A stretch of 64,000 nt of DNA, from IMG/VR virus record IMGVR_UViG_3300031949_000004, positions 30,224-94,223 of that record. One strand, written 5' to 3'. Positions 57,254 through 63,041 of the stretch are shown piece after piece. The notes below the pieces were generated by a model. The model saw only the letters and a program-made list of their open reading frames with translations, searched no databases and was not told the DNA's origin. Made by a program: the position numbers and the translations under genes. Each line of letters opens with the position of its first letter. The stretch's first letter is position 1. This DNA is from a virus.

Positions 57254-59840
57254 GTCGAAAGCTTCGAGCGCCATCGAGACTCTTGTTGTCTGGTACCGCG
57301 AGCCCTGTGCCGGGTAGGTCGAAAGCTTCGAGTGCTTTCGGAACTCTTGTTGAAACTCTTGTCGCTGCCGCTTCGCCCACAGACCGGAAACGTACTTGTA
57401 GTCGAAAGCTTCGAGTGCCTTCGGAACTCTTGTCGCGAGCTTGCACCTGCCGGAGGGAGCATTCAACCAACTATCGAAAGCTTCGAGTGCCCTTGGGACT
57501 CTTGTCGCCGCACGAGTAGACCGCGAAGGTTGAGGTGGGTCGAAAGCTTCGAGTGCCTTCGGAACTCTTATTGTGCGTTTGCCAGCAACCACCAACTTGT
57601 CAGCGTTCTCAGGTCGAAAGCTTCGAGTAATGCTTTCGGAACTCTTGTTGTTATACCAACCCCAATTTTCTCCGCTACGGCCGCGTCAAAAGCTTCGAGT
57701 GCTTTTGGAACTCTTGTTGCCAGTCATTACCCTCCTAGAGGATGTCGAAAGCTTCGAGTGCCTTCGGAACTCTTGTCGGCGCCTAGGAGCACGTATGGTA
57801 GGTCGCAGGCTTAGGGAATCGAAAGTTTTGAATGTTATCACATCGGTTGCCAGTCATGACACCCCCTTGTACTCGGTGTCGAAAGCTTCGAGTGCCTTCG
57901 GAACTCTTGTCGCGAGCTTGCACCTGCCGGCTGGAGCATTCAACCAACTATCGAAAGCTTCGAGTGCCTTCGGAACTCTTGTCACATGATCTCGTTACAA
58001 GTGCTGGGGTCGGATGGCTTCGCATTGAAAGCTTCGAGTGCTTTCGGAACTCTTGTCGCTTACATTGCGCGGACTCCCAGATGCTGGCATAGACAATCTT
58101 TCTACACTTCACCGAAAAATTTATTCCCATAGTTCTTTCTTTGCATTTCCCGTCCACAAGACAAGCAGACTCGAACTTCAACGTTCACCTGGAGAGGATC
58201 GGTATAGTCGTCAGTGTCGAAATACGCGTTGGGGTAGACGAAATCCTTCTTCCACTTGGAAGGGGTGCAGGGATCACCTGGCTTACCCTCTCTGGAGCGC
58301 GCGCAAGGGAGCACGGGTCTGACAACCTTGATGAGGTTGAGATTAAGAACCCCTTGTCGAGTTTTAGGGTTGCACGTTGAGCAAACAGCCGGTTCTTCTT
58401 TGACACATCTCATCTTCATTTCCTCATTCCAAGCAGTTGGAACTTTTGTCGCATTTGGGGTATCGATGCGTCTTCAACGATACCAAGTAGTCGAAAGCTT
58501 CGAGTGCTTTCTGAACTCTTGTTGCGGTGCTCCCAGAAGGTACTCCCAGAAGGTGCGCCCGCCAGCTCCAGTGAAAGGTCGAAAGCTTCGAGTGCCTTCG
58601 GAACTCTTGTCGTCGGACATTAGAATAACCTTGCGCGCTTGAAGTCGAAAGCTTCGAGTGCCTTCAAAACTCTTATCGCTAACGCATCTACGACGTCAAA
58701 GGTGATTCGCTCAGGAGTCGAACGCTTCGAGTGCCTTCGGAACTCTTGTCACTTGAAAACCGAGTTTGCTAGCCCGTAGACCTGGCCCCGGTCGAACGCT
58801 TCGAGTGCCTTCGGAACTCTTGTCACTTGAAAACCGAGTTTGCTAGCCCGTAGACCTGGCCCCGGTCGAAAGCTTCGAGTGCCTTTGGAACTTTTGTCAC
58901 TCTGGGCCACGCGGCAGAAATCACCGGGCGAGAAGTCGAAAGCTTCGAGTACCTTCGGAACTCTTGTCGCTGCGCAATTACCAAAAACAGCGCAATTGCG
59001 TTCGGTCGAAAGCTTCGAGTGCCTTCGGAACTCTTGTCGCGACCGAGACGTCGTGCTAAACTGGCTGCGTGACGGCGTCTGTCTTCGGAACTCTTGTCAC
59101 CACCCTGGTGAGAGCAGGGCTGCGGAATGTCCAATCCGGTCGAAAGCTTCGAGTGCCTTCGGAACTCTTGTCACCGGAGCTGTTGCGCCTTGCGACTGAT
59201 GATTAGGAAGGTCGAAAGCTTCGAGTGCCTTCGGAACTCTTGTCACCACCGTCCGGGTTGGCCGGAGCCGCCCTTCGACATGGTGTCGAAAGCTTCGAGT
59301 GCCTTCGGAACTCTTGTCACCTTCCAGCGTCGGCCGAACGAGGCAAGCGGGTGGATGTCGAAAGCTTCGAGTGCCTTCGGAACTCTTGTCACCTGCCAAG
59401 CGGTGAGGCCAGAGAGAGAGGCGCTACCGTCGAAAGCTTCGAGTGCCTTCGGAACTCTTGTCACGGGGGTGATGATCGTGTGGCCGCTCGCCGTCTCCGC
59501 AGTCGAAAGCTTCGAGTGCCTTCGGAACTCTTGTCACAAAGCAGGTTGCCGAGCAGCTCGGCGTGAACATCAGTCGAAAGCTTCGAGTGCCTTCGGAACT
59601 CTTGTCACGTCCGTGAAGCCGTCGCGTGCCGCGCCGTCGCGCGTGCCGCCGTCGTCCGTGTCGAAAGCTTCGAGTGCCTTCGGAACTCTTGTCACCACCC
59701 TTGTTGTTCCAAAAAGCGTACACTTCCATGGTCGAAAGCTTCGAGTGCCTTCGGAACTCTTGTCACCGTCAGTGTGGGAACGCACACCAACTACGCGCTC
59801 CTGGTCGAAAGCTTCGAGTGCCTTCGGAACTCTTGTCACG
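57254..59840 (-). CRISPR. CRISPR array of about 31 repeat units with a 36-bp repeat
   Basis: The repeat is GTCGAAAGCTTCGAGTGCCTTCGGAACTCTTGTCAC on the plus strand. Spacers are about 28-51 bp. Repeats are near-perfect from 58.49 to 59.84 kb and degenerate from 57.25 to 58.06 kb. The array is interrupted at 58.06-58.49 kb. It directly abuts the 3' end of the Cas12-like gene. Confidence 0.9.
58102..58419 (-). CDS. small zinc-ribbon ORF inserted inside the CRISPR array
   Basis: 105-aa ORF with CSTCNPKT...CLSCGRE. Non-repeat unique sequence flanked by repeat remnants. Confidence 0.3.
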   Translation of the reverse strand: MKMRCVKEEPAVCSTCNPKTRQGVLNLNLIKVVRPVLPCARSREGKPGDPCTPSKWKKDFVYPNAYFDTDDYTDPLQVNVEVRVCLSCGREMQRKNYGNKFFGEV

Positions 59841-59859
59841 GCACCACGGAAAATAGCAA

Positions 59860-61764: not shown

Positions 61765-61838
61765 GCTCCAACCGTTGCACGATTCACCGAACCTGTCAAG
61801 GCTCGTAGGCTAACGAAGCTAATGAAAATAACCCACGT

Positions 61839-63041
61839 TCACGGTTTGATGTTGTGGGTCCGCAACGCCACCGGGGCATCTCCTGGACCGCGCCAGTAGG
61901 GATGAATCCAGGTTGGGCGTCGTTCGGCATGTCCGGGGCCGTAGGGTTGCAGTTTCCAATGCCCGGCGACGGTATGCCGCAACGACAGGCTCCAGTTGCT
62001 CTTGTGACGAAGCTGGTACTCCGTGACGTGTTCGACCAGGTTGATGGTGATGGGCGCGGTGATCTGATAGGTGCGCAGCTCCGAAGGATCCTCCTGGCGC
62101 CGCCTGGTCTTGTTTCCCCAGCGGTCATGCACAGCCTGGTTCACCTTGCCCACCGAACGTGGGTTCGTGAGCGCGCAGATCACGCTGACCACGAGCCGCC
62201 CGGCCAGCATGAGGCATTTCTCATTTCGGCCGCTGGCATCGTCCCATGGCGCCTCGAATGCCATCTCGCTCCCAGTGCCGTCAGGCAGGCTGCCGAGCGT
62301 GATGGCTGGGCGATTCAGACTTTGCAACACGACCTCGGTTTCCTGGGAACCGATCATCAGGGTCCAGCGATATTCGCCGCTTGGCTCTATCTCGTAGCAA
62401 AGAACGTTGATGTGAGTCACGGGATGAGGAACGTTCTTGCTGAACATGTAGAGGACGGGCTCCCTGGGCATGTCGATGATGAAGGATTTCCAAGGGTATT
62501 TCAGTTCTTCGAGCACCTCACGGTTCGGGACGGTGGTCATGGCTGCGGCGGCGAAAGCAGCGGAGATCTTGACCGTGGGAAACCCACCATCGGTCCAGCG
62601 GTAGAGGGCCACGTTCTGCGCGTGTGCGCTGGCGTCCGCTACCTTCGTGCCGATGATCTGCGAGATAGCGAAAGCCAGGTCGGTATCACCACCCGAAAAC
62701 TGCGGCAAGAGATGCCAGAGCTTGTCGCCCATGCTCATGAGCCCGGCGAGATCGTACCCCTTGCCCTCTAGCACGGGACAGCGAAGCAGGTTGCTGACGG
62801 CATGGGTCGCGCGACCCAGGAATGCAGGATCGTCCTTCGCAACAGCGGCTTCATCGGCAAGTGTCGTATCGATCGCCTTGGAGCTGGCTAGCCACCTTGC
62901 GCGCTGGATCTCATCGCACAGATCCCATTTTTCCTGCAACCCCGCAAGACAGAAGCGATCGATCGTCGACACCTGCCCCGTGAACTTGACGAGGTTCCTG
63001 GTGATGAGAGCTTCGAGAGTCGCAAAAACGATGTTGCTCAT
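61839..63041 (-). CDS. hypothetical 400-aa protein co-oriented upstream of the Cas12-like gene
   Basis: Long ORF with no recognisable motif. 75-nt gap to the Cas12-like gene. Confidence 0.4.
   Translation of the reverse strand: MSNIVFATLEALITRNLVKFTGQVSTIDRFCLAGLQEKWDLCDEIQRARWLASSKAIDTTLADEAAVAKDDPAFLGRATHAVSNLLRCPVLEGKGYDLAGLMSMGDKLWHLLPQFSGGDTDLAFAISQIIGTKVADASAHAQNVALYRWTDGGFPTVKISAAFAAAAMTTVPNREVLEELKYPWKSFIIDMPREPVLYMFSKNVPHPVTHINVLCYEIEPSGEYRWTLMIGSQETEVVLQSLNRPAITLGSLPDGTGSEMAFEAPWDDASGRNEKCLMLAGRLVVSVICALTNPRSVGKVNQAVHDRWGNKTRRRQEDPSELRTYQITAPITINLVEHVTEYQLRHKSNWSLSLRHTVAGHWKLQPYGPGHAERRPTWIHPYWRGPGDAPVALRTHNIKP

Follow-up and report, generated by a model that had tools for sequence, protein, structure and literature searches.

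A type V-M locus in a viral contig

The stretch of DNA analysed here, referred to as the window, covers 64,000 nt (positions 30,224 to 94,223) of the IMG/VR virus record IMGVR_UViG_3300031949_000004, whose source contig is 194 kb long. Its minus strand carries a compact CRISPR locus, in which an open reading frame (ORF) of 400 amino acids (aa) at 61839-63041 is followed after a gap of 74 nt by a 634-aa ORF at 59860-61764, and then by a repeat array at 57254-59839 whose copies all lie on the same strand. Judged from its homologies, the 634-aa protein is a full-length Cas12m, the effector of type V-M systems. The locus is best explained as a type V-M Cas12m silencing module on a probable huge phage, with an independent neighbouring gene of AcrVA2 fold, and this explanation is given a probability of about 0.78.

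When the 634-aa protein was compared with PDB chains (phmmer), the best match was 23vw_A, described as "CRISPR-associated DNA-binding protein Cas12m" (E 8e-57, residues 39-584). It was followed by 23vu (UnCas12m4a), 8hio and 8hhl (MmCas12m2) and 8pm4, with 8hio (E 1e-12) and 8pm4 (E 3e-12) both aligning over query residues 228-585. Marginal scores were obtained for TnpB and Cas12f chains of the PDB, confined to the C-terminal zinc-ribbon region. The PADLOC model of Cas12u1 matched with an E value of 1.2e-75, V-U1 being the earlier name of type V-M. In addition, the Pfam family PF07282 (Cas12f1-like TNB domain) was found at residues 522-581 with 37.2 bits for a cut-off of 26.3; this TNB domain is inserted in the RuvC domain and bears a CxxC...CxxC zinc ribbon, C550/C553/C569/C572. 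The gene is intact and 80 positions are invariant across 18 relatives. The initial annotation, made from the letters alone, had recognized a TnpB/Cas12-family effector with its own array, and this is upheld, the protein being a type V effector derived from TnpB.

Anatomy of the repeat array

As read in the sequence, the array begins 20 nt past the stop codon of cas12m, and these 20 nt (59840-59859, minus strand) are too few to hold a separate leader or promoter. Comparably tight gene-array junctions (0-70 nt) were found in the homologous loci L010, L011, L012, L015, L016 and L029. In gene orientation the 36-nt repeat reads GTGACAAGAGTTCCGAAGGCACTCGAAGCTTTCGAC. A 24-nt core of it was matched 28 times at up to 3 mismatches, always on the minus strand within 57254-59839, for an expectation of 0 in 100 shuffles. 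Several aberrant units add to these matches, namely a copy with a 2-nt insertion (57613-57650), half or degenerate copies at about 57816-57851 and 59065-59100 and a 14-nt remnant at about 58436-58449, which brings the array to 31-32 units, in agreement with the approximately 31 repeats abutting the gene that had been counted at the outset.

The gene-proximal part (59139-59839, minus strand) contains ten identical repeats; nine of its spacers measure 35-38 nt and a further one 51 nt. The perfection of these repeats suggests that this part of the array is in use. The long spacer, the third one (59609-59659), has about 78% G+C and is internally repetitive (ACGGCG and CGCGAC motifs), and it may be a product of fusion or slippage rather than of normal acquisition. 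In the middle part (58490-59138, minus strand), the repeats carry 1-4 substitutions, one of them is a half-repeat (59065-59100), and one repeat-spacer unit is exactly duplicated (58717-58790 and 58791-58864). The distal part (57254-58059, minus strand) shows repeats with 1-7 substitutions or indels and irregular spacers of 23-47 nt, as well as a repeat-spacer-repeat block duplicated at 93% (57392-57506 and 57869-57983). Thus the distal two thirds or so of the array are decaying by point mutation, duplication and insertion, and the early description of intact proximal and degenerate distal repeats proved accurate.

The middle and distal parts are separated by an interruption of 430 nt (58060-58489, minus strand) that takes the place of most of one repeat. 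It is made of the 14-nt repeat remnant followed by a Cys-rich ORF of 105 aa (58102-58419) that has a CxxC...CxxC motif and is preceded by a GAGGA ribosome-binding site. No homologue of this ORF was detected and no match was found in phage genomes. The array of L010, a locus whose Cas12m relative is 55% identical, is likewise interrupted (6234-6552) by a Cys-rich ORF of 71 aa. Homology between the two insert ORFs was considered and rejected, as none was detectable on comparison.

No match to models of Cas1, Cas2 or Cas4 was found among the 78 ORFs of the 64-kb window, which was the extent of the search (PADLOC, E<=1e-5; Pfam, E<=1e-6). This upholds the early description of the locus as devoid of cas1, cas2 and cas4 within the window.

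An asparagine at the first RuvC position

The RuvC triad of the protein is composed of N312 (codon 60829-60831), E487 (60304-60306) and D579 (60028-60030), and the peptides MAMVNFGWR, VVIEVFD and WDQDVNN are translated at these places. In the HMMER alignment, MAMVNFGWR of the query stands over AAIDLGWR of 23vw and VALHLGWR of MmCas12m2. The three residues align with D, E and D of 23vw and with H317, D485 and D579 of MmCas12m2, which are structurally defined RuvC positions (PMC10442227). The initial annotation had proposed that Asn replaces the RuvC-I Asp while the RuvC-II Glu and the RuvC-III Asp are kept, and had named a mis-registration of MVNFGW as a possible refutation; alignment and translations confirm the triad and place Asn at RuvC-I.

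This residue is shared by a whole group of proteins. In a MAFFT alignment of 59 homologues, Asn was found in the motif xINFGWR in all 26 relatives of 37-74% identity. The seven closest have the triad N-E-D and, among the other 19, 17 have N-D-D, one has N-E-D and one is truncated. Remoter homologues of the same alignment have mainly D-E-D, some H-D-D and other triads. As it is invariant in the 26 relatives, Asn at RuvC-I is a fixed trait of a subgroup and neither a sequencing error nor a mis-registration. In the part of Wu et al. 2022 relayed by PMC10442227, Cas12m is divided into four clades according to the triad, namely HEK/HQK, HDD, DED/NED and DED/DND/NED. N-E-D is listed there and was therefore already catalogued for Cas12m.

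Cas12m proteins with D-E-D, H-D-D and N-D-D triads were shown to bind double-stranded DNA in a manner dependent on a protospacer-adjacent motif (PAM) and not to cleave it (PMC11013384). The N-D-D protein PmCas12m, whose structure was solved, was found to be nuclease-dead; in its CRISPR RNA (crRNA), about 33 nt come from the repeat and the guide takes up some 17 nt (10.64898/2026.03.26.714355). When D-E-D was restored in MmCas12m2, cleavage did not come back (PMC11013384, PMC10442227). The RNA-guided binder that does not cut, predicted from the probably dead RuvC-I, is thus reasonable given that all the tested Cas12m bind without cutting. For the same reason it is not new, such behaviour being standard for type V-M.

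Repeat structure and guide RNA

Thirteen repeats from related arrays were aligned and their pairs counted for a pseudoknot made of stem I (alignment columns 9-11/22-24) and stem II (columns 15-20/31-36). In the repeat of the window, these correspond to A9-U11 with A21-U23 and to C14-G19 with C29-G34, respectively. Pairing was observed in 95.7% of the cells (100% for stem II) and two-sided changes at 9/9 pairs. The covariation score reached 0.94, for 0.31 in shuffles (0/500 attained it) and at most 0.28 with slid partners. Past the 3' arm of stem II come first a near-invariant AC and then the spacer. This two-stem pseudoknotted repeat matches the Cas12m handle described in PMC11013384. On the contrary, the TCGAA-GCT-TTCGA palindrome, which is present in the repeat and had been put forward as the crRNA hairpin, was paired in 49% of the cells with 1 compensatory pair, which is the level of shuffles, and does not hold as the crRNA structure.

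The pseudoknot contains seven G-U cells, including G18-U30 of the window repeat, that would be A-C mismatches on the opposite strand, and this supports transcription of the array in the direction of the gene, as had been assumed. No anti-repeat that would be the sign of a trans-activating crRNA (tracrRNA) was found elsewhere in the window at up to 3 mismatches over 24 nt. The repeat core was absent from IMG/VR and from the metagenome collection, where no sister arrays were found. In characterized Cas12m, a tracrRNA is not involved and the protein processes its own pre-crRNA independently of RuvC (PMC11013384).

By analogy, the array would be transcribed in the cas12m direction, probably by read-through of the gene. 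Cas12m would trim the pre-crRNA itself, without tracrRNA, and bind the repeat-derived 5' handle, a two-stem pseudoknot whose last bases, ...GAC, directly precede the spacer. The complex would then bind double-stranded DNA that is flanked by a PAM and complementary to roughly the first 17-20 nt of the spacer. Having Asn where the first RuvC carboxylate should be, Cas12m would stay bound and not cut. The bound protein would stand in the way of transcription or replication, the targets presumably being phages or plasmids in competition with the carrier, or host genes.

Recurrence of the module and nature of the carrier

In the metagenomic relatives L010, L011 and L012 (41-55% identity), an array of 36-nt repeats starts 0-15 nt past the gene. 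A scan of IMG/VR retrieved ten viral contigs of up to 183 kb encoding Cas12m relatives, and the array comes right after the gene in every one that has enough downstream sequence. Altogether, an array directly 3' of the gene was observed in at least 11 independent loci (L010, L011, L012, L015, L016, L018-L020, L022, L023, L029). The last of them belongs to a GenBank phage, Rctr197k (KX853510, 197 kb), in which tblastn revealed a 30%-identical gene annotated "similar to transposase". Its annotated CRISPR region of about 21 repeats lies 34 nt past the gene, and the repeats are perfect near the gene and degenerate further off. Outside phages, the plasmid matches include plasmids of Allomeiothermus silvanus and Mycobacterium already familiar from published work on Cas12m, and GTDB yielded only five loci among 185,579 species representatives, all of them metagenome-assembled genomes and two from Polyangiaceae. 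The Asn-type subgroup is apparently concentrated in viral contigs.

Type V-M has been reported to be strongly enriched on plasmids and to occur also in some prophages (PMC11656645). Novel variants of V-U were mentioned in a survey of huge phages, as were phage CRISPR loci in which cas1/2/4 are missing and proteins resembling AcrVA2 (10.1101/572362), and the myxophage MV-1 encodes MvCas12m, which has a D-E-D triad and 8 spacers (bioRxiv 10.64898/2026.09.14.751636). In view of this published work on Cas12m and phages, a mobile-element-borne RNA-guided binder that does not cut is textbook type V-M.

The carrier is probably a huge phage, as judged from its tRNA load, PHROG matches and gene content, and viral relatives. 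The window contains 38 tRNA genes in one block (46766-55566, minus strand) immediately downstream of the region of the CRISPR locus. They cover most amino acids, with several isoacceptors for Leu, Arg and Ile; such a large tRNA block is typical of huge phages. The window also encodes RtcB, an RNA ligase, glycosyltransferases, HNH endonucleases, Dam and a ParE toxin (Pfam/PHROG). The mobile-element carrier that had been suggested initially is upheld in this form.

Two related loci display further modules. Phage Rctr197k has, about 5 kb upstream of its cas12m-like gene, a second gene for a "transposase-like protein" followed by a small CRISPR array with the repeat GTTGCCGGCTCACCCGCTTCAGCGTTCGATCGCGGG (L029 1-390 and 626-882), and may therefore harbour two TnpB- or Cas12-type modules. 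In L011, a phage-like contig with a 41%-identical Cas12m, a TnpB-like ORF of 479 aa (PF07282) was observed 4 kb downstream (14050-16606). It adjoins a serine resolvase, an IS607-type pair, so that Cas12m lies there beside a bona fide TnpB element.

The AcrVA2-fold neighbour

The 400-aa ORF (61839-63041, minus strand) had been described as co-oriented with the effector gene and close upstream of it, which is confirmed with a gap of 74 nt, and as unannotatable, which no longer applies. Its product has the three-domain fold of AcrVA2 (7CI1, 7CI2), a link made by structure comparison only. The protein gave no direct match to Pfam, NCBIfam or PADLOC; it matches phrog_15934, a family to which PHROG assigns no function. 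A precomputed match to PF26125 ("AcrVA2-like") is flagged as weak, and the local Pfam scan returned no PF26125 match for the protein, nor for homologues precomputed as members of PF26125. Profiles built from 12 and from 93 homologues reached no PDB chain, the 93-sequence profile also missing 7CI1, and re-searching the word-indexed protein database with a profile gave no further homologues.

The family to which this AcrVA2/FinQ-like protein belongs is characterized by invariant or near-invariant G360-H361-x-K363 and PYWRGP motifs. AcrVA2 is reported to have a conserved C-terminal HxR motif (H286/R288) that is needed for mRNA down-regulation. The GHxK motif lies at a similar distance from the C-terminus. 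Unlike AcrVA2, the 400-aa protein has about 100 extra N-terminal residues and GHxK instead of HxR, and there is no match between the two at the sequence level. Clustered at 50% identity, the AcrVA2-like proteins form 4924 groups, which makes theirs a very large family.

The genomic context was compared in both directions. The closest homologues of the 400-aa protein are encoded on phage-like contigs beside RtcB, a helicase, DNA polymerase B or ThyX, with no cas12m near them, and the genes upstream of the cas12m relatives differ in every locus (ParB-like, or unknown proteins of 421 aa and of 60, 173 and 506 aa). A profile search of all ORFs of 29 loci found the 400-aa family and cas12m together only in the present phage. 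In this search, the surroundings of 20 other cas12m relatives, covered over up to 10 kb, contained no AcrVA2-like ORF, and no cas12m was found near the 4 further distinct loci of the AcrVA2-like family. In L012, the protein of 421 aa encoded upstream of the cas12m relative was considered as a homologue of the 400-aa protein and rejected on comparison. Based on these comparisons of gene neighbourhoods, the 400-aa gene is a chance neighbour and not a conserved partner of cas12m, and is best viewed as an independent counter-defence or inter-element conflict gene. The initial proposal of a partner or recruited effector finds no co-occurrence in the 28 other loci to rely on.

Just upstream of this gene, a consensus match to a sigma-70-like promoter, TTGACA-16-TAGCAT, is located at 63054-63081 on the minus strand. 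It could drive a single transcript of both genes and the array.

Points against the proposed silencing module and alternative explanations

Several observations weigh against a functional Cas12m silencing module on a huge phage. No protospacer was found by blastn when the array was compared with the INPHARED phages and its proximal third with the PLSDB plasmids, and this is the outcome of the spacer BLAST search that the initial annotation had advised. All the spacers compared with the rest of the window and with 13 related loci (blastn-short) gave a best match of 17/18 nt, the level of chance. Exact scans with the first 22-24 nt of single spacers returned nothing, neither in IMG/VR (six spacers) nor in GTDB genomes and JGI metagenomes (one spacer each). 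Missing spacer matches are usual for arrays of environmental phages. With about two thirds of the array degenerate, much of it may be inert. The scan for sigma-70-like sites gave 3 in the region for 1.7 expected, so that the promoter match is weak evidence. Genes for capsid, portal and terminase were not seen in this 64-kb window. Finally, the triads of the Cas12m tested so far are D-E-D, H-D-D and N-D-D; N-E-D falls outside this set and, with Glu and Asp retained, a residual nuclease activity is possible.

This last point leads to an unlikely alternative in which the N-E-D site is still catalytic on target DNA or on single-stranded DNA, which would make the system a cleaving and not a silencing one. 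In its favour, conservation of E487 and D579 is strict, the neighbouring motifs are well conserved, and DNA hydrolysis by Cas12m of clades 3 and 4 was speculated in PMC10442227. However, that speculation was about canonical D-E-D sites, the tested D-E-D Cas12m did not cleave, and the restoration of D-E-D in MmCas12m2 was without effect (PMC11013384, PMC10442227). Moreover, the two metal ions are bridged by a negative charge that Asn is unable to supply, and N-D-D enzymes are nuclease-dead (PMC11013384; 10.64898/2026.03.26.714355). Equally improbable is a decaying relic, whose array guides nothing useful and whose cas12m is on its way out or repurposed to a role unrelated to CRISPR. The degenerate two thirds, their duplicated units, the 430-nt insertion that splits the array and the lack of a detectable target for any spacer would fit such a relic, but the conservation of the intact gene and the identity of the ten proximal repeats speak against it. 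In addition, the perfect-to-degenerate gradient is shared by L010, L019 and phage Rctr197k and hence looks like the normal state of such arrays; the absence of spacer matches is, as said above, commonplace.

A functional system of two genes, formed by the AcrVA2-like protein and Cas12m, is held to be very unlikely. In its variants, the neighbour would tune cas12m through recognition of the nascent peptide, or would destroy host Cas12 mRNA while sparing that of the phage's own Cas12m. Co-orientation, the 74-nt spacing and a promoter-like site present only upstream of the first gene are compatible with such a system, and AcrVA2 does target a type V effector, as it binds the nascent N-terminus of Cas12a (bioRxiv 10.1101/2022.11.29.518452). 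Against it stand the lack of co-occurrence in the two sets of loci, the variable upstream neighbours and the size of the AcrVA2-like family, members of which have been reported mostly without Cas12a in the host. As for an IS200/IS605 or IS607 TnpB with an unrelated array beside it, also envisaged in the initial annotation, its probability is close to nil. Matches to the NCBIfam models "guided_TnpB" (47 bits, cut-off 100) and IS607 TnpB (25 bits, cut-off 350) and to PHROG "transposase" families do exist, but the NCBIfam ones are limited to residues 447-613 and the PHROG ones to the C-terminal third, while Cas12m structures cover residues 39-584. Since the structure and PADLOC matches are full-length and those to TnpB models partial and far below their cut-offs, the protein is considered as Cas12m and not as an IS-borne TnpB. 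No Y1 or serine transposase or recombinase family was detected among the 78 ORFs of the window (Pfam) that could stand for a TnpA, and the recurrence of the array after the gene in independent loci also rules against an unrelated array. The Cas12m silencing module thus remains the preferred explanation.

Other genes of the window and its vicinity

A TROVE/Ro60 protein of 530 aa that contains a vWA domain is encoded on the plus strand shortly past the AcrVA2-like gene, from 63724 to 64000, where it runs off the end of the window (L008 2496-4088), and further on in the same genome lies a gene for an RNA polymerase alpha-CTD-like protein. RtcB is found at 18582-19727 and the RNA ligase at 1666-2697. 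Together with TROVE/Ro60, they suggest a gene set for RNA repair and quality control. Pfam matches to the major vault protein shoulder, the Vault_3 repeat and Band_7/SPFH were also obtained among the 78 ORFs, an unusual set for a phage; these vault and SPFH domains may reside in a 902-aa ORF at 30615-33323 that has no PHROG match. PADLOC matches in the window included a "Csx1" model (E 1.4e-7), a PtuB-like HNH, a type II restriction enzyme model and an exonuclease effector. The ORF behind the "Csx1" match was not found among ten candidate ORFs checked.

Relation to known systems and significance

Characterized Cas12m proteins (MmCas12m2, GoCas12m, MsCas12m, PmCas12m) share with the present one full-length homology, a size of about 600 aa, carriage by mobile elements and a RuvC domain with an inserted zinc-ribbon TNB and a non-canonical triad. 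They also share 36-nt repeats with two interleaved stems and an array beside the gene and, as far as the window shows, the lack of a tracrRNA candidate. The differences are the N-E-D triad, which belongs to a catalogued class, the CCCC zinc site where MmCas12m2 has HCCC, an identity of about 25-30% to the solved Cas12m, a long array of about 31 units and a carrier that is probably a huge phage instead of a plasmid or chromosome. The same minimal combination of effector and array in a large phage genome, without cas1/2/4, is known from MvCas12m of MV-1, from the V-U systems of huge phages and from Rctr197k. MvCas12m differs by its D-E-D triad and its 8 spacers, the present protein being part of the subgroup in which Asn is fixed at RuvC-I. 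Rctr197k has a similar layout, with the short gene-array distance and the gradient of repeat decay, and its protein is 30% identical.

The initial annotation had likened the protein to Cas12k, Cas12c and the TldR repressors. The likeness stands insofar as all are RuvC-impaired descendants of TnpB or Cas12 engaged in RNA-guided DNA binding, here with Asn at RuvC-I, but the class is another one, type V-M. Cas12k belongs to the CRISPR-associated transposons of type V-K, and none of the Tn7 genes tnsB, tnsC and tniQ is among the Pfam families matched by the 78 ORFs of the window. Cas12c is far larger and no Cas12c chain was matched in PDB, and TldRs use an omega-type guide RNA where a CRISPR array is present here.

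With a known V-M family, a known triad class and a known kind of carrier, the locus is a further example of a known system. A broader view, itself unlikely, is that Cas12m with Asn at RuvC-I forms a lineage found mainly in large phages, acts with long, self-contained arrays as a programmable repressor of rivals or host genes and is here paired, functionally and not by chance, with the AcrVA2-type factor, which may remove a host type V effector or regulate the phage's own one via nascent-peptide recognition. If true, the two together would act as one cassette, to "silence others, disarm host". For now the AcrVA2-fold neighbour rather illustrates that adjacent genes need not be partners.

To a family characterized so far mainly from plasmids and chromosomes, the locus contributes a well-preserved N-E-D Cas12m with a long array, from a probable huge phage. 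From a practical viewpoint, the N-E-D variant could by analogy serve as a naturally nuclease-dead compact scaffold for CRISPR interference or base editing, and the covariation-backed pseudoknot of the repeat offers a ready crRNA design. Along with the ten IMG/VR contigs and Rctr197k, the locus shows that large phages repeatedly carry minimal modules of type V-M, and this recurrence lends support to the view that CRISPR silencing without cleavage is used by phages in conflicts between elements.

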